This document shows, piece by piece, positions 43,774 through 53,879 of a stretch of 64,000 nucleotides of DNA. The position numbers and the translations under genes are program-made. The number at the start of each line of letters is the position of its first letter. Position 1 is the first letter of the stretch. The notes beneath the pieces are model-generated. The model saw only the letters and a program-made list of their open reading frames with translations, was not told the DNA's origin and searched no databases. The stretch comes from Candidatus Poribacteria bacterium (GTDB taxonomy: Bacteria; Poribacteria; WGA-4E; WGA-3G). The DNA lies in NCBI GenBank assembly GCA_963663765.2, contig CAXXUA010000013.1:128001-192000 (forward strand), written 5' to 3'.

Positions 43774-44595
43774 ATGAAATCTGATGATGTGGCAATGACA
43801 TTCTGGCAACATCTTGAGGAACTTAGACGGCGTATAATCATCTCGTTTATAGCTTTAGGAGTATTTGCCATTGTAGGTTTGGTTTTTAGTAAACCTATAA
43901 TATATATACTTGAACTCCCGTTGAAGAGTCCTATCACTAACATGATTGCAAGCGCAATTGAGGCAGGTGCTGACACAGAAGGATCAACATTTGGGTTCTT
44001 AGCATTAGCACTAAGAACAGGATCATCAGGTGTTGAAACTGAACTCATACTCACAGGACCTTTTCAAGCAATAATGGCTTATCTGACAATTGGTATCACT
44101 ATTGGTATAGTATTGGCACTGCCGATAATCCTCTATCAGATTTGGATGTTTGTTTTTCCTGCATTAAATAGAAAAGAACAACGTATAGCAATTCCACTGT
44201 TTGTTACCATCATCTTTTTCTTTTTACTCGGTGCACTTTTTTCTTATTTTATCGTAGTTCCCGTTGTTTTGCAATTCGCAGCAGGTCTGTTTCCAGACTT
44301 TAAAAACCTTTGGGATTTAAAATTTTATATAACCTTTGTTGCGCAGTTAATTTTAGGCTTTGGTATTGCATTTGAATTACCCATTGTAATGGCGTTTCTT
44401 GCACGAATTGGTGTTATTGACTCACGTGGATTTCAGGGGAAGCAAAAATTTGCACTAATGGGTATCTGTGTAATGTCTGCCCTACTAACTCCCGCTGATC
44501 CAGGATCAATGCTACTAATGGCAATCCCACTCTATATTTTATATCAACTCGGAATATTCTTTGCATTTCTTGTTGAAAAGGAGGCTGAAACATAA
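43774..44595 (+). CDS. tatC: Twin-arginine translocase TatC
   Basis: HLEELRRR, YQIWMFVFPAL, FGIAFELP, LTPADP. Confidence 0.96.
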   Translation: MKSDDVAMTFWQHLEELRRRIIISFIALGVFAIVGLVFSKPIIYILELPLKSPITNMIASAIEAGADTEGSTFGFLALALRTGSSGVETELILTGPFQAIMAYLTIGITIGIVLALPIILYQIWMFVFPALNRKEQRIAIPLFVTIIFFFLLGALFSYFIVVPVVLQFAAGLFPDFKNLWDLKFYITFVAQLILGFGIAFELPIVMAFLARIGVIDSRGFQGKQKFALMGICVMSALLTPADPGSMLLMAIPLYILYQLGIFFAFLVEKEAET

Positions 44596-45338
44596 TGTCA
44601 AATGAAACCCTAAGGCAGCAACTCGCTTTACTCTACAAACTTCAGGAACATGACAGAGAGTTGTTGTCAATCCACAGACGGTTTCAAGCGATTCCACGAC
44701 ACATCAAACAGTTAGAAGCAAACGTAACACAACATAATGATAATTTAAACGCAAAATCGGATGAACTTTCAGAAGTAGAAAAATCTCTTCGATCTAAGAA
44801 TGCTGACTTAGAAATGAATGAGGTACAGCGTGAAAAATATAAAACAGAACAACGGGAAGTCACCACGAATGACGCCTATTCTGCGCTTGAAAAACAGATA
44901 GAATTTCTTGATGATAAAGATGCCGATACAGAGATAGAAATATTAGAACTCTTAGAAACCGCAGATCAACTGAAGGAGGAATTGAAAAAACTTGAAGCAG
45001 AAGTGTCAGACGAAAACGATAAAATTAACGAACAAAAAACCCAGTTTCGTAAAGAACAGAAAGAACTAAAAGCAAGTATAGATGCAAAAATGGAGCAACG
45101 TTCCAAGTTCTTACCAAAAATTGATAAGCAACTCGGTATTCTATACAGCAGGTGGATGGAACGTCAGAAAGGAGATTTTGTAGCATTGGGTAAGAATGGT
45201 ACATGTGGAAGTTGTCAGTTGACAATCCAACCTCAAAATCTAAAGGAGGCGCAAAATTACGATAAACTGGTATATTGTGCAAATTGTAAACGAGCCCTAT
45301 ATGTTGAGCCGCTTTCATCAGAAATTCCATATCCATAA
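44595..45338 (+). CDS. Coiled-coil protein with C4 zinc ribbon (DUF164/CT398-like)
   Basis: Long coiled coil plus CGSC...CANCKRALY. Confidence 0.85.
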   Translation: MSNETLRQQLALLYKLQEHDRELLSIHRRFQAIPRHIKQLEANVTQHNDNLNAKSDELSEVEKSLRSKNADLEMNEVQREKYKTEQREVTTNDAYSALEKQIEFLDDKDADTEIEILELLETADQLKEELKKLEAEVSDENDKINEQKTQFRKEQKELKASIDAKMEQRSKFLPKIDKQLGILYSRWMERQKGDFVALGKNGTCGSCQLTIQPQNLKEAQNYDKLVYCANCKRALYVEPLSSEIPYP

Positions 45339-48548: not shown

Positions 48549-48815
48549 ATGCAGATTGTTGCAGAATTACTTAGCAAAGCAATTGATATCTACATGTTTA
48601 TTGTTCTCGTCAATGTTCTACTTTCATGGGTTGTGTTTGGTATTCAGAATACATTCGTTCGACAAATCTATACGTTTACGGGTCAAGTTGTAGATCCTGT
48701 ACTGCAACCAATACGTAGCGTCTTAAATCCTGTTAGTCGAAATATTGGGATTGATTTTTCGCCGATTGTATTATTGATTTTGCTTCACACACTAAACAAG
48801 ATGCTAATATCATAA
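48549..48815 (+). CDS. yggT: YggT family membrane protein
   Basis: VLLSWV...DPVLQPIR...GIDFSPIV; follows yggS-proC. Confidence 0.9.
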   Translation: MQIVAELLSKAIDIYMFIVLVNVLLSWVVFGIQNTFVRQIYTFTGQVVDPVLQPIRSVLNPVSRNIGIDFSPIVLLILLHTLNKMLIS

Positions 48816-48884: not shown

Positions 48885-51485
48885 ATGACATTTAGTATTA
48901 TGAAACAGACAAATTCTTCAACCAATAAGGCAACTACTAAACTTTCAGAGAAAATACCAAATAACAAAAAGGGAAAAGAAAATCCCTCAAGCAACATAAG
49001 ACCTAATTCAATGGAAGCTGGAATTCTAAAATTGTGGGCATCCAGAAAGGTGTTTAAAATTGCTGAAAAAACGAAGGAATTACCCACTTTTGTTATTAGA
49101 GAGATGCCGATCCCTGTAGATTCGCTAAATGGTAATACTCTTAAGAGTAAAATCTCGCAAGATATCTTTCTAAAGTACGAAATTATTCATGGAAACACAG
49201 TTGCTTATGCCCCAATATGGGAAACATTTCCCTTCAGTATAGAGGTTGATATAATTAAGAAAGATATCCATACATCTTCACGTAACATCGTAAATTTTAG
49301 GAAACAATGTAGACAGTTATACAGTAAACAGTTGAAATCACAAATGAATCGTTTGCAGAAACTTGGAATATTTGCAGATTGGACCACCGCTGAAAAAACA
49401 TTAGAGGCACGCTATGAAACCAAACTCTTTAGTTTTTTTGATAGAATGCGAGACTCAAGATTCCTACGCGATGAACTGAAACTCAGTCATTGGTGTCCAC
49501 AATGTATATCACCTTTAGAAGCTGGTAAAACCGCTAAACCTATAACTACTAATGCACAATTTACTTATGTAAAATTCCCTCTAAATAGCGGATTTGAAGA
49601 ATTCGGTGTAGAAGTCTATTTTGCAATGGGACTGCCATCTTCTCAATTATGGGAAATCGCTGGAACAATTGCAATTGGAATTTATGAAAAAACTCAGTTT
49701 TATCTTATAGAATGGGAAGACCAATATCTTATAATAGCTGAACCACAACTAAAGAATTTTTTTAATCAAGATGTAAAAAAGAAGAAAAAGACAAAAACCA
49801 ACAAAAAACAGCTATTAAAATTTAATGCTTGTCTTTTAAAAGACTGCACGCTTTCACATCCATTATATTCACTACCAGATCTGCACTTTTTTGTTATACC
49901 TGAGGAAATAATTGACAGCATTTCCAACTCCTCTGAAAAACAGGAATTAATGAATGGAATTGTTCATTTGAACCCTGCACATCATGTATTGAGTTATAAC
50001 ATCTGTAATAAATTGTCTGAAATCAGAGAATCCATTCATACAAGATTTGAGTCTTCATCTTCTTTCACACCAATATTTGATGAAGTTGGACGTTTTACTG
50101 AGGAAGCAGACACATTGTGTGGAATAAATTTAAACAATGCAATGCAGTATATCACGGATGAATTGGAAGCACGCGATTGTCTTATTAGAACGAATAAACA
50201 AGAGATTGAACAACTTCAGTGTGAACACTGTGATGGTTTATCTGTCTCTCGACCTTACCGTCACTGGGTTTTTTCAGCCACTTCTACTGATATTGTTGAA
50301 GAGGTTACAACGTCACCAGAATATTGGGAACACTACAACGACAACTTACGCGATGAAATTAAGACACAAGTCCTCAATATCTCTGATATGCAGATTTCTT
50401 CTCAGCGACAGTGGGGTATCCCTTTCCCAATTCTTCGATGTGACAATTGCAACCATCTCATTACAGACAAAAAGATTCTACGAGCTGTGAGAAGTTCCAT
50501 CCGAAGAGGTTCTGAACACTGGTTTAGACTCAGTGTAGAAGAACTACTTCCAACAGATACTCAGTGTGAAAACTGTCACTCAAAAGATTTTAGAAAAGAA
50601 TCAACTTATATTGAGAGTCATTTCGCTAACTTACTACAAACGCTTGACATCTCAGACTTTAAAAAGTCTTCAATAGATACGACAACTAATGTTGTCTTTG
50701 CACCACGATCAGCTTTCTTGAAATGGTTAGGGGAATTAAGTGTATTATCCGCATCATTACAACTCAGTCGTCCATCTAAAGAAAGTCATCCTTTTAAGCA
50801 TCTGAATCTTAATAGTTTTGACGATTGCAACTGGGATCCAGAAATTGAGGATAAATACTTAGAGGAATATCCAGCAGATGTAATCAGACTATTCTCCGTT
50901 TCAACAGATTTATGTCAAGTACCTTCTGAAGTTGACAAAACACAAACACTTCAAGAGATAATTGATCATACTAATAAAAAATATAATAAACTAAGAATTG
51001 TTTTAGATCAGGTTGTTGCATACAAGAACAATCAAAATAAAAAACCTGATTCCAATAACGATTTATTTTTATCAGATCTGTCAAATGAAAATGCTGCAGA
51101 CACCTTAAGTGAGCATGACATTCTTATAATCACAATGACCAATCAACTGCTTCGTGACATACAGGACGTTTACAAAAAAAGAGATTTCTTTATGATGTGG
51201 CGGATGATTTCAGACTTTTGTGAAATAGATCTATTGGTGTATATTGACTTATGCCAAGAAAATGATTCAGATTCTGCGAATATTGTACTTCCAGTGATAT
51301 TCAAAGTCATTCTTCAATACTTAGCGCCAATTTTGCCTTTTTTAGCTGAACAGACATACACAAAGGGTTATTCTGCATCAAACAGTATTTTTGAAGAAAA
51401 ACTGGAGTGTCTACCACAAATCTTTGCTGATGAAAAGTCAATAGAAGTGTGGGATCTGTTTAGGAACAAGAAAAGTTCAAAGTAA
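48885..51485 (+). CDS. Isoleucyl-tRNA synthetase homologue lacking HIGH, KMSKS and editing motifs (predicted catalytically inactive)
   Basis: IleRS scaffold retained (LGIFADW, HWCPQC, YVKFP, GIVH.P.H, GRFTE, ISSQRQWGIP, ADVIRL, LAPILPFLAE) and in ileS-lspA synteny, but the catalytic motifs are replaced. Confidence 0.85.
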   Translation: MTFSIMKQTNSSTNKATTKLSEKIPNNKKGKENPSSNIRPNSMEAGILKLWASRKVFKIAEKTKELPTFVIREMPIPVDSLNGNTLKSKISQDIFLKYEIIHGNTVAYAPIWETFPFSIEVDIIKKDIHTSSRNIVNFRKQCRQLYSKQLKSQMNRLQKLGIFADWTTAEKTLEARYETKLFSFFDRMRDSRFLRDELKLSHWCPQCISPLEAGKTAKPITTNAQFTYVKFPLNSGFEEFGVEVYFAMGLPSSQLWEIAGTIAIGIYEKTQFYLIEWEDQYLIIAEPQLKNFFNQDVKKKKKTKTNKKQLLKFNACLLKDCTLSHPLYSLPDLHFFVIPEEIIDSISNSSEKQELMNGIVHLNPAHHVLSYNICNKLSEIRESIHTRFESSSSFTPIFDEVGRFTEEADTLCGINLNNAMQYITDELEARDCLIRTNKQEIEQLQCEHCDGLSVSRPYRHWVFSATSTDIVEEVTTSPEYWEHYNDNLRDEIKTQVLNISDMQISSQRQWGIPFPILRCDNCNHLITDKKILRAVRSSIRRGSEHWFRLSVEELLPTDTQCENCHSKDFRKESTYIESHFANLLQTLDISDFKKSSIDTTTNVVFAPRSAFLKWLGELSVLSASLQLSRPSKESHPFKHLNLNSFDDCNWDPEIEDKYLEEYPADVIRLFSVSTDLCQVPSEVDKTQTLQEIIDHTNKKYNKLRIVLDQVVAYKNNQNKKPDSNNDLFLSDLSNENAADTLSEHDILIITMTNQLLRDIQDVYKKRDFFMMWRMISDFCEIDLLVYIDLCQENDSDSANIVLPVIFKVILQYLAPILPFLAEQTYTKGYSASNSIFEEKLECLPQIFADEKSIEVWDLFRNKKSSK

Positions 51486-51510: not shown

Positions 51511-52005
51511 GTGACAAACCTAACACAGTACTTTAAAAAGGCTATACCGCTGTTCGTTGTAGCAGTACCAATGTTGACGCTGGATATCCTAACTAAATGG
51601 ATTGTACGCGAGAACATACAATTGGATGACAGCATATCAGTCATCAACGGTTTTTTTTATCTCAGTCATCATAGAAACTCTGGTGCAGCATTTGGTATTC
51701 TGGCAAATCAACGGACTTTGCTTGTATTAGTAACTATCGCTGCACTTATCTTTATTTTTTTGTATTCAAATCGTTATAGAAACAGTAAATGGGTACAGAC
51801 GGCACTCGGTTTTGTTCTTGGAGGTGCAGTAGGTAACTTTCTTGACAGACTATTTTTGGGAGAAGTTGTTGACTTTCTTCAGTTTGGCATTGAAAGTAAG
51901 AATCTGTTTTGGCCCACTTTTAATGTAGCCGATGTCAGTGTTTGCATAGGGGCAGGCATGCTTATCGTTTACCTTTTCCGTCAGCAAAATCAGGGAACAA
52001 ATTGA
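51511..52005 (+). CDS. lspA: Lipoprotein signal peptidase II
   Basis: DILTK, NSGAAFG, GGAVGNFLDR, VVDF, FNVAD. Confidence 0.97.
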   Translation: MTNLTQYFKKAIPLFVVAVPMLTLDILTKWIVRENIQLDDSISVINGFFYLSHHRNSGAAFGILANQRTLLVLVTIAALIFIFLYSNRYRNSKWVQTALGFVLGGAVGNFLDRLFLGEVVDFLQFGIESKNLFWPTFNVADVSVCIGAGMLIVYLFRQQNQGTN

Positions 52006-52091: not shown

Positions 52092-52649
52092 ATGTTATTA
52101 CTTAGAAATTACCTTTGTATTCTGGCAGTTTTTGCTACGATTATAATCACACCTACGATACATGCGCAAGTCAGTCAAGACGATGCGGAAGAATATCATG
52201 AAAGTGCATTGCGACGGTTTGAAATTGTTACATTAAGTTCACTTCCATTTACTGCAATACATAGTTATTTAGGTGTTCGTGGTGTGAGAATGATTCAAGA
52301 CAGCAAAATAGCACCGGTTTTGACCCCGCAAAATTATCGTGTAATGGGTATTTGTGCCGTATCGTTGTCACTATTTATCGGAATTTGGGACTGGTACCAT
52401 ACGCGTGATGTTGACAGGTCAGCACCAAGTATACCGGGGTACAAACCCCCAACACCTCCTTCAGAGGAAGAGTTACCACCGGATGGGACAATCACACAGG
52501 TTACTCCTTATGGACCACATGCAAATGTCCATACCACATCAATGGAATATAGATATTACCCATATTCTACAGAAAACTCACAACTAAATGGGTGGGTAGC
52601 CGAACAAAGTGAAAGTGTTTACATCCCTATTTTACAGATAAGGTTTTGA
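52092..52649 (+). CDS. Hypothetical membrane protein
   Basis: 185-aa ORF with signal peptide, TM segment and Pro-rich linker. Confidence 0.65.
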   Translation: MLLLRNYLCILAVFATIIITPTIHAQVSQDDAEEYHESALRRFEIVTLSSLPFTAIHSYLGVRGVRMIQDSKIAPVLTPQNYRVMGICAVSLSLFIGIWDWYHTRDVDRSAPSIPGYKPPTPPSEEELPPDGTITQVTPYGPHANVHTTSMEYRYYPYSTENSQLNGWVAEQSESVYIPILQIRF

Positions 52650-52650
52650 C

Positions 52651-53879
52651 CTAATGAACTTTGACATTCAAACGGGGTAATGTTATAATGATATAATTCT
52701 AAATATAAGGAGTATATCATGGCAAAACGCAGAGAACTTATTCTTTCAGAAGAAGAAAGACAGAAATTGATTAAATACAGAGATCATCACCCCCGGCCTG
52801 ATGTCAGAGAAAAAGCTGCAGCGTTGTTGAAAGTAAACGATGGTATTCCTGCACACCGGGTTTCAAAAAGTGGGTTACTCAAACGCCGCAAGCCTGATAC
52901 TGTCTACAGATGGTTGAATATTTATGAAGAAGAAGGTTTTGATGAACTCATACAGCGACAACATGGTGGAGCAAGACAACGATTTTCAAAAAAAAAAGAA
53001 GAAGAACTATTAGAACGTGTGCGCCAAGTCCCTGCTGAAGTTATGGATAATGCGAAAGTTGTTTCTACTGATGTGCCTCCCCCAAATCGTTGGACGCTTC
53101 GGACACTACGTGCGAGTCTTGATTGGTTAGAAGGATACAGCCTGAGCGGTGTTCATAGAGTGCTGTCTCGTTGTGGTTTGCGTCTTCGCTCAGGTCGCGT
53201 GCAGCAGTATAGTCCGGATCCTGAGTATAAGGAGAAAGTGTTGCATTTGTGTTCCTGCTTACAGCAGACCATTGGCAATCGTGGTCAACAAGAGTTGGTA
53301 TTTCTGGATGAGATGGGATATACTCGTTGGCCTGAAGCGGGGCGTGTTTGGACACAAGCACCGCCGGAAAGTATTCCTGTGGCAAGTTGTGATGGAAATA
53401 ACCAGCAATGGCGAATTATTGGTGCACTGAATGCGTTGACAGGGCAGGTCTGTTATCTTGATAACTACATTGTAGGACGTGCGAAAGTGATTGAAATGTA
53501 TCAGAAGTTGACACAAGTATATCCACAAGCAGAAATACTTTATGTTGTTCAAGATAACTGGTCTATTCATAAACATCCAGATGTGCTTGATGCGTTATCA
53601 GAGTTACCACAGATCAAGCCTGTTTGGCTACCGACCTATGCACCGTGGTTGAACCCGATTGAGAAGTTGTGGAGATGGCTGCGTGTAGACGTGTTTAAGA
53701 TGCATCGCTTTGCGAGCCAGTGGGAGGAGTTCAGGGCCCGGGTGAACGGATTTCTCGATCAATTTGCAGACGGTTCGGAGGACTTACTCCGTTATATAGG
53801 ACTGAAAGGCAATGGTCTAATAGCAAACGCTTGTAGACCTGTTTAAATATTACCCAACTTGAACGTCAAAGTTCATTAG
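52651..53879 (+). mobile_element. Apparently intact IS630-family element (transposase 52719..53846)
   Basis: TIR CTAATGAACTTTGAC/GTCAAAGTTCATTAG with TA duplication in a CTAG target; FLDE, VQDN..IH, LPTYAPWLNPIEKLW. Confidence 0.93.
52661..52689 (+). promoter_or_regulatory. Perfect sigma70 promoter inside the IS630 left end
   Basis: TTGACA-17 bp-TATAAT with TGn, followed by AAGGAG. Confidence 0.8.

Follow-up and report, generated by a model that had tools for sequence, protein, structure and literature searches.

The window analysed here is a 64,000-nucleotide stretch of contig CAXXUA010000013.1 from a Candidatus Poribacteria bacterium (assembly GCA_963663765.2). Its forward-strand gene at positions 48885–51485 encodes a homologue of isoleucyl-tRNA synthetase (IleRS), here termed pseudo-IleRS, which we regard with high confidence as a selected, non-aminoacylating derivative of type 1 IleRS (IleRS1). 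The original prediction, made from the sequence, had described an intact but catalytically dead IleRS homologue kept by selection for a new role. This reading is supported by a low ratio of non-synonymous to synonymous substitution rates (dN/dS), by intact orthologues, by a second ileS gene and by the slot and ancestry of the gene. Pseudo-IleRS very probably does a new job, for which non-catalytic RNA binding is put forward tentatively.

An intact IleRS1-like protein

The gene is an 866-codon frame without an internal stop, and the proposed collinearity with IleRS1 was confirmed by Pfam, by the NCBIfam equivalog model TIGR00392 (ileS) and by alignments. The start codon conserved among orthologues is Met6 (window position 48900) rather than Met1, a small correction to the original prediction; residues are numbered from Met1 throughout. 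Pfam searches matched tRNA-synt_1 (PF00133) over residues 47–629 (E 4e-25) and Anticodon_1 (PF08264) over residues 748–841 (E 1e-8), the latter corresponding to the anticodon-binding helices said to have been kept. Among hidden Markov models, TIGR00392 was the best for pseudo-IleRS, at 190.5 bits against a cut-off of 621.4, and in the genome search with this model the protein was matched as two pieces of 159 and 36 bits. At the local G+C of 36%, a stop-free frame of this length has a probability of ~1e-27, and chance was rejected as the cause of the open frame. An alternative genetic code was likewise rejected, as table 11 leaves the frame open here and in all orthologues.

For structural characterization, an AlphaFold2 model was built from a 26-sequence family alignment. 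The model had a mean predicted local distance difference test score (pLDDT) of 80.6 and a predicted template modelling score (pTM) of 0.79, with disorder limited to residues 1–40, three short CP1 loops and an insert around residues 721–734. When the model was compared with the PDB by Foldseek, the IleRS1 structures 8c9e, 8c9f and 1qu2 ranked first (E 6e-35 to 3e-31 over ~860–870 columns), the top match being 8c9e (E 6e-35, TM 0.59, 868 aligned columns), followed by IleRS2, ValRS and LeuRS structures. A search of the ESM Atlas returned class I synthetase clusters as its sole matches. The Pfam and Foldseek results agree that the overall architecture of Rossmann fold, CP1 and helical anticodon-binding domain is kept, and the model indicates a folded protein rather than a decaying relic. 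The parts of the protein outside the former motifs are as follows.

48885–51485, + strand: pseudo-IleRS open reading frame (ORF), IleRS1-derived, 866 amino acids counted from Met1 (family matches, orthologue alignment)
48900–49004, + strand: Lys/Ser/Thr-rich N-terminal tail, residues 6–40 (orthologue alignment, model, dN/dS 0.52)
51126–51407, + strand: helical anticodon-binding domain, Pfam Anticodon_1, residues 748–841 (Pfam, regional dN/dS)

Residues 713–745 (window 51021–51119) form a disordered Asn/Asp/Ser-rich insert within the helical domain, which is far longer and acidic in the sister genus, where the proteins reach 900–957 amino acids.

Loss of the catalytic and editing motifs

Motif positions were read from alignments with the solved IleRS1 8c9e, with two true IleRS sequences and with 54 motif-complete IleRS1 representatives. 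All of the replacements originally proposed, for HIGH, GWDCHGLP, WTTTPWT, GTGxVHxAPxHGxDD, DVWFDSG, EGSDQ and KMSKS, were seen in these alignments. Their positions, together with those of two retained segments, are listed below.

49098–49139, + strand: former HIGH region, residues 72–85, now REMPIPVDSLNGNT (alignments)
49215–49238, + strand: former GWDxHGLP motif, residues 111–118, now IWETFPFS (alignments)
49491–49505, + strand: WCPQC, first Cys pair of the zinc site at the base of the CP1 insertion (family alignment)
49629–49664, + strand: position of the Thr-rich editing peptide (WTTTPWT), now GLPSSQLWEIAG (alignments)
49950–49994, + strand: former GTGxVHxAPxHGxxD editing motif, now MNGIVHLNPAHHVLS (alignments)
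50397–50633, + strand: most constrained segment, residues 505–583, windowed dN/dS 0.04–0.07 (alignment, dN/dS)
50703–50729, + strand: former EGxDQxRGWF motif (ribose and amino-acid binding), now PRSAFLKWL (alignment to 54 IleRS1)
50808–50891, + strand: former KMSKS loop (LNSFDDC), then the retained YPADVIRL (alignments)

The aligned HIGH (HxGH) position is occupied by NGNT, and SFDDC is found at that of KMSKS, directly before YPADVIRL. The position of the editing peptide reads GLPSSQLWE, DVWFDSG has become ESHFANL, and the Asp of the second editing motif is Ser in the window protein, being retained in basal relatives. The chain stops after the helical domain, so that the C-terminal zinc domain (CxxC...CxxC) is absent, as had been reported. 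Neither HxGH in the first 170 residues nor KMSKS was present in any of the 80 related loci described below.

The four structural Cys pairs named in the original prediction were found: CPQC (residues 204–207), its partner CEHC (446–449, window 50220–50231), CDNC (519–522) and CENC (561–564). In the family alignment all four show no or almost no variation. The most constrained segment reads QRQWGIPFP, CDNC, WFRLSVEELLP, CENC, DFRKE and ESHFANL in turn. In the former HIGH region, E73 and P75 are invariant among the 26 aligned sequences, and (V/L)REMP is thus a new conserved motif; WET(F/Y)P, LWEIAG, NPAHH, SHFANLLQ and SRPxKESxPFK are further family-wide motifs. Invariant residues of the family alignment include E73, D93, K97, E120, H325, H366, R456, E572, D665 and R668. 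The WFxxxxxxLLP and FxKE blocks are also present in true IleRS1 in the 8c9e alignment, and these conserved blocks are therefore inherited.

Adenylate formation by pseudo-IleRS is very unlikely because all ATP-, isoleucine- and ribose-binding motifs have been lost, and we infer that the protein no longer makes isoleucyl-adenylate (Ile-AMP) or Ile-tRNA. That it is a still-active IleRS with unorthodox motifs is barely credible. The full IleRS architecture is retained and, in the sections of Brkic et al. 2023 (PMC10485003) available to us, non-canonical signature motifs are described as functional in IleRS2. In pseudo-IleRS, however, all five substrate-binding motifs are replaced and not merely permuted, whereas a two-residue swap in HXGH was already sufficient to eliminate product formation in two IleRS1 enzymes, according to the same sections (PMC10485003). 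The score of 190 bits against a cut-off of 621 and the presence of a complete IleRS2 in the genome also speak against residual activity.

A working IleRS encoded elsewhere

The original prediction had assigned Ile-tRNA supply to another IleRS elsewhere in the genome. A search of the organism's own 6.35-Mb assembly found a second ileS at G000:C3:26362-28872 (locus L001), whose 1047-amino-acid product scored 973 bits, above the TIGR00392 cut-off, and carries GVHH, GWDTHG, WTTTPWT, DCWFDSG and KMSKS. Judged by these motifs, this product is predicted to be IleRS2-type and the working IleRS of the genome, in support of the proposed division of labour. In this enzyme GVHH replaces HxGH, a swapped signature motif; G/AXHH is the non-canonical IleRS2 motif that the available sections of Brkic et al. 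2023 (PMC10485003) link to mupirocin hyper-resistance. Matches above the cut-off were found in 60 of 61 sampled genomes of the same order, with ORFs of ~1050–1070 or ~1120–1170 amino acids, and none of ~920–940 amino acids, the usual IleRS1 length, was among them. In basal Poribacteria, four of five genomes had an above-cut-off IleRS of ~1045–1055 amino acids, and the fifth was ended by a contig edge.

The GVHH motif bears on the idea, raised in the original prediction, that pseudo-IleRS serves as a decoy. As a sink for natural IleRS inhibitors of the mupirocin or thiomarinol type it would shield the working enzyme, a role that we consider very improbable. IleRS is a frequent antibiotic target, and possession of a variant tied to mupirocin hyper-resistance, in the same partial source (PMC10485003), hints at such pressure; a hyper-resistant IleRS2 would, however, render a decoy unnecessary. 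Inhibitors of this kind are Ile-AMP mimics, and pseudo-IleRS no longer has the residues with which a synthetase holds this intermediate (HIGH, GWDxHG, DVWFDSG, EGxDQ and KMSKS). Because these adenylate-pocket residues are gone, a decoy looks the least likely of the roles originally suggested.

Distribution, integrity and selection

By protein search, all 24 genomes sampled from the same genus had an orthologue, with 47–80% identity and frames of 854–886 amino acids, and profile searches gave matches in 37 of 37 genomes of the genus. Across the phylum, a profile search (E ≤ 1e-40) matched 135 of 151 Poribacteria genomes. With families numbered f1–f9, matches were seen in all 99 genomes of f1, the family of the window, in 22 of 26 of f3, 4 of 4 of f4, 5 of 5 of f5, 2 of 2 of f6, the one genome of f7 and one of two of f8, and in none of the ten genomes of f2 or the one of f9; within f3, genus g3 had none in four. 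The single f9 genome contains a partial copy, broken at a contig start, directly upstream of lspA.

When named genome records were scanned with the family alignment, 224 relatives were returned, of which the best 80 were examined. These 80 records are titled Candidatus or uncultured Poribacteria bacterium, with a few 'uncultured bacterium', and public records name the product 'isoleucyl-tRNA synthetase', 'class I tRNA ligase family protein' or 'hypothetical protein'. A whole ORF of 854–964 amino acids, stop to stop, was present in 79 of the 80 loci, the other being ended by a contig edge. No disrupted copy was seen among these 80 Poribacteria loci, so that the frequent disruption that would have spoken against the original prediction was not found. 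A few stops were flagged inside match spans; in G005, the one case checked, the ORF is whole at 861 amino acids.

For estimation of selection, dN/dS was calculated by the Nei–Gojobori method on codon alignments of 25 genus orthologues, using the 68 pairs, out of 300, whose dS lay between 0.05 and 1.5; the remaining pairs were saturated or too close. The median for pseudo-IleRS was 0.174, and the median pN/pS over all 300 pairs was 0.33. By the same method proC gave 0.116, lspA 0.117, the ORF downstream of lspA 0.206 and yggT 0.26. The value is thus not near 1, and lies between those of proC and lspA (0.12) and that of yggT. Regional values, computed on 55 pairs, were as follows.

N-terminal tail: 0.52
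Rossmann N-terminal half including the former HIGH region: 0.15
CP1: 0.18
Residues 451–640: 0.12
Helical domain: 0.24–0.28
Variable insert, residues 713–745: 0.36

In sliding windows, dN/dS fell to 0.04–0.07 over residues 504–583 and was 0.11 over residues 64–123. Given these low values overall and by region, pseudo-IleRS is therefore under purifying selection on its protein sequence, strongest around the former catalytic core.

Ancestry and history of the gene

Phylogenetic analysis placed the Poribacteria family in a single clade, with support of 100 by FastTree (77 rows) and an SH-aLRT of 99 by IQ-TREE (LG+C20 PMSF, short search, 38 rows). A branch with support of 100 in both trees sets IleRS1 and the family apart from IleRS2 and archaeal sequences, a placement to be read with caution in view of the long branches and the uneven composition that was flagged. 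The slot is also conserved: 78 of 79 loci have yggT immediately upstream, and in 76 of the 77 loci whose sequence extends far enough the gene that follows is lspA. Copies from f5, f6, f7, f8 and f9, which belong to other orders and another class, share the slot yggS-proC-(yggT)-divIVA-like-X-lspA and also lack HIGH and KMSKS. Together, the trees and the slot show that pseudo-IleRS descends from a bacterial IleRS1 that was ancestrally part of a yggT-(divIVA)-ileS-lspA cluster, consistent with the displaced IleRS1 originally envisaged.

In the basal orders (loci L058–L066), a ~190-amino-acid ORF judged DivIVA-like by reading of its sequence lies between yggT and pseudo-IleRS; it is missing in the order of the window. 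The basal gene order presumably corresponds to the ylm-divIVA-ileS-lspA cluster of Bacillus, which it resembles.

Basal copies retain more of the ancestral enzyme. The f8 copy (G074, 943 amino acids) keeps an IleRS1-type N-terminus, WIGTPWT and the C-terminal CxxC...CxxC domain; this domain is also present in the basal relative G075 and in the f9 fragment. Several basal copies retain the editing-site element 'PGH..DDY' with the editing Asp. The spread of motif-less copies over orders and classes, the C-terminal domain kept in basal relatives and a lysine-rich tail seen in f1 rows alone show a clear order of events: loss of the catalytic motifs, then loss of the C-terminal domain, and finally gain of the tail. 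Loss of the motifs thus preceded the divergence of the sampled classes.

In genomes of f2 and of genus g3, yggT and lspA are separated by gaps of 108–538 bp that lack the gene, and tblastn searches of these gaps in four gene-less genomes detected no remnant (best E 0.15). The gene has therefore been cleanly lost at least twice.

These losses give some weight to the view that pseudo-IleRS is a functionless relic, its frame held open merely for expression of lspA through translation or the transcript, or its decay not yet begun. A gap of 25 nucleotides, free of terminator-like sites, separates the gene from lspA, and neither f2 nor g3 has kept any trace of it. Against this, a dN/dS of 0.17 and the conservation of individual residues exceed what a mere open frame would need, and every copy, even those as low as 23–30% identity and spread over most of the sampled families, has an open frame. 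An 866-codon frame is not expected to stay open by chance at the probability given above, and in the gene-less genomes lspA still lies 108–538 nucleotides behind yggT on the same strand. We consider a relic extremely improbable.

Possible function of pseudo-IleRS

The IleRS2-type enzyme encoded elsewhere covers Ile-tRNA charging in Poribacteria, and the displaced IleRS1 has lost its ATP- and isoleucine-binding residues and its editing motifs and, in the order of the window, its C-terminal zinc domain as well. The whole IleRS fold and two zinc knuckles have stayed under purifying selection in most sampled families, and we infer that the product acts as a binding protein. Its target may be tRNA or another RNA, bound in a mode less anticodon-specific than that of a real synthetase, with the conserved Rossmann/CP core as the putative binding surface and, in f1, a newly gained, lysine-rich disordered N-terminal tail assisting.

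This non-catalytic RNA binding is the mechanism that we put forward, tentatively. The synthetase body is kept whole, together with both zinc knuckles, and the f1 tail is basic and disordered: residues 6–40 of the window protein have an isoelectric point (pI) of 10.4 and a net charge of +6, and are predicted to be disordered. The tail resembles the lysine-rich extensions that lend eukaryotic synthetases unspecific affinity for tRNA. Nucleic-acid binding is also common to most known synthetase modules without catalysis, among them the HisRS-like domain of GCN2 and the PheRS beta subunit. LeuRS-I binds tRNA, as stated in the accessible portion of a review (PMC9437257).

Several observations weigh against RNA binding. 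The body of the protein is acidic, with a pI of 5.6. Canonical recognition of tRNA-Ile is doubtful because the C-terminal anticodon-binding zinc domain is gone in the order of the window, and the helical anticodon-binding domain, at 0.24–0.28, is the least constrained folded part. Of the basic columns conserved in 54 true IleRS1 sequences, 4 of 25 are kept in the family (mean retention 0.37), compared with 0.58–0.61 for aromatic and aliphatic core columns, figures that are rough, coming from a fast alignment of divergent sequences. In the alignment, f1 rows alone showed the lysine-rich tail, copies from g4, g6, g7 and g8 being without it, and the protein is dispensable in f2 and g3.

The poor retention of basic columns typical of substrate and tRNA contacts would suit a regulatory or scaffold subunit comparable to HisZ, in which the dead body binds and modulates a protein partner and perhaps accepts a small effector in a remodelled cleft. 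Constraint is strongest on the former active-site side, as seen for residues 64–123 and 504–583, conservation extends to new motifs shared across the family, among them (V/L)REMP and WFRLSVEELLP, and HisZ itself is a precedent for a synthetase paralogue turned regulatory subunit (PMC9437257, in part). No candidate partner emerged, however, as the conserved neighbours (yggT, lspA and, basally, divIVA) are those of the ancestral ileS, and conservation was partly inherited, WFxxxxxxLLP and FxKE also being found in true IleRS1. We regard such a subunit as unlikely on balance, yet as a serious candidate.

Also a close rival of RNA binding, though improbable in itself, is a new catalytic or small-ligand activity in the remodelled synthetic or CP1 pocket, for example with aminoacyl-tRNA as donor in the manner of SbzA. 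The invariant charged and histidine residues listed above line the former pockets; several of them are, however, also conserved in true IleRS1 and may be structural. The CP1 element 'PGH..DDY' survives with its editing Asp in basal relatives, and SbzA is an IleRS homologue that acts as an aminoacyl transferase (PMC6331615, in part). SbzA nevertheless keeps HIGH- and KMSKS-like motifs and belongs to a biosynthetic cluster, as far as that partial source goes; pseudo-IleRS has neither, its gene lying in a housekeeping cluster. The probability left over from RNA binding and the alternatives discussed here falls to roles that we have not thought of.

Relation to known synthetases and synthetase paralogues

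Pseudo-IleRS resembles IleRS1 (8c9e from Priestia megaterium; 1qu2 and 1ffy from Staphylococcus aureus) in fold, domain order, its slot upstream of lspA and its side of the tree, and differs from it by the absence of HIGH, KMSKS, the Ile-AMP pocket motifs, the editing motifs and the C-terminal zinc domain. Among proteins derived from synthetases, the HisRS-like domain of GCN2 is a non-catalytic nucleic-acid sensor or binder, found in eukaryotes inside a kinase. It offers a model for the RNA-binding mechanism, with the difference that pseudo-IleRS has no fused kinase or effector domain. HisZ is a class II paralogue that partners HisG and still binds its own amino acid. Pseudo-IleRS, by comparison, is class I and its amino-acid pocket is gone. 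The likeness to HisZ is that of a non-aminoacylating synthetase paralogue with a non-translational role beside a working synthetase of the same specificity, as given in the accessible portion of the review (PMC9437257). LeuRS-I of the Sulfolobaceae is likewise described there as an extra class Ia copy with a disrupted CP1 editing domain, a divergent C-terminus and no aminoacylation (PMC9437257), of which the first three are shared by pseudo-IleRS and the last is predicted for it. The review portion adds that LeuRS-I forms leucyl-adenylate and binds tRNA-Leu (PMC9437257), whereas pseudo-IleRS lacks the adenylate-forming motifs.

SbzA, the Ile-tRNA-dependent aminoacyl transferase of SB-203208 biosynthesis, is also an IleRS homologue recruited beyond translational charging, according to the part of the report at hand (PMC6331615). 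The same part states that SbzA keeps HIGH- and KMSKS-like motifs, charges tRNA weakly and is encoded in a biosynthetic gene cluster (PMC6331615), none of which applies to pseudo-IleRS. A synthetase core with its catalytic residues lost, a working synthetase alongside and long-term purifying selection were all found, and on this sequence-based comparison pseudo-IleRS probably belongs with non-catalytic synthetase paralogues of the HisZ and LeuRS-I kind.

Brkic et al. 2023 (PMC10485003) saw HXGH throughout their sample of 158 IleRS1 and stated that an IleRS1 with a non-canonical signature motif had not been found in nature. Our search of the literature for a motif-less or inactive IleRS1, or for the Poribacteria protein, found no report, supplementary files not being covered; motif-less IleRS1 sequences could be present in the tree and alignment that underlie the work of Brkic et al., which lay outside that search. 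When the family profile was run against 1.84 billion representative proteins, the best 150 matches included more IleRS1-like proteins without HIGH and/or KMSKS (P0140, P0144, P0150, P0152, P0159, P0165, P0171, P0186, P0204, P0215, P0219, P0239 and others). These motif-poor proteins form clades outside the Poribacteria family in both trees, and some come from metagenome-assembled genomes labelled Armatimonadota, Myxococcales/Deltaproteobacteria and Firmicutes/Bacillota, which hints that IleRS1 has been turned into motif-poor paralogues several times independently.

Whether the Poribacteria proteins are the first natural IleRS1-lineage family without class I signature motifs, a dead synthetase kept since before the sampled classes diverged and given a new non-translational function, we judge to be evenly balanced. 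The family may also be one case of a general route, suggested by the separate motif-poor clades, by which IleRS2 takes over charging and the displaced IleRS1 is recycled as a binding or regulatory protein rather than lost. New forms of regulation have come to light time and again through non-catalytic synthetase derivatives (HisZ, the HisRS-like domain of GCN2 and LeuRS-I), and an IleRS1-derived case is not described in the searchable literature. With hundreds of intact members, the family is a natural counter-example to the presence of HXGH in all sampled IleRS1, and a tractable system for the repurposing of an essential enzyme once a horizontally acquired replacement takes over. It also presents a systematic annotation problem, pseudo-IleRS genes being publicly named as synthetases, members of a ligase family or hypothetical proteins.

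Genomic neighbourhood

Both neighbours that had been proposed to flank the gene, yggT and lspA, were identified by Pfam.

48549–48815, + strand: yggT (Pfam YGGT), upstream neighbour
51511–52005, + strand: lspA (signal peptidase II), downstream neighbour, 25 nucleotides past the pseudo-IleRS stop codon (Pfam)

The wider neighbourhood is a housekeeping cluster of tatC, pgeF, yggS, proC, yggT, lspA and fmt. Promoter and terminator scans around the pseudo-IleRS gene gave nothing above shuffled expectation, and an Rfam scan of the whole window found no RNA family. Pseudo-IleRS is probably co-expressed with lspA.

Downstream of lspA, an ORF at 52092–52649 (+) encodes 185 amino acids with a signal-peptide-like N-terminus, a C-terminal ...IRF and no Pfam match. 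In nearly all related loci, also those of genomes without pseudo-IleRS, it comes after lspA, and we take its C-terminal Phe to recall outer-membrane proteins. Between this ORF and fmt, a transposase ORF with Pfam DDE_3 and HTH domains is inserted at 52719–53846 (+); the 2-kb composition window that contains it has a G+C of 0.416, compared with ~0.36–0.37 around it, and a promoter-like site with a perfect (12/12) match precedes it closely, at 52661–52689. Most related loci have no ORF of that size at this position. Between tatC and a cupin-like ORF and upstream of pgeF, the ORF at 44595–45338 (+) encodes a CT398-like coiled coil and a C4 zinc ribbon.

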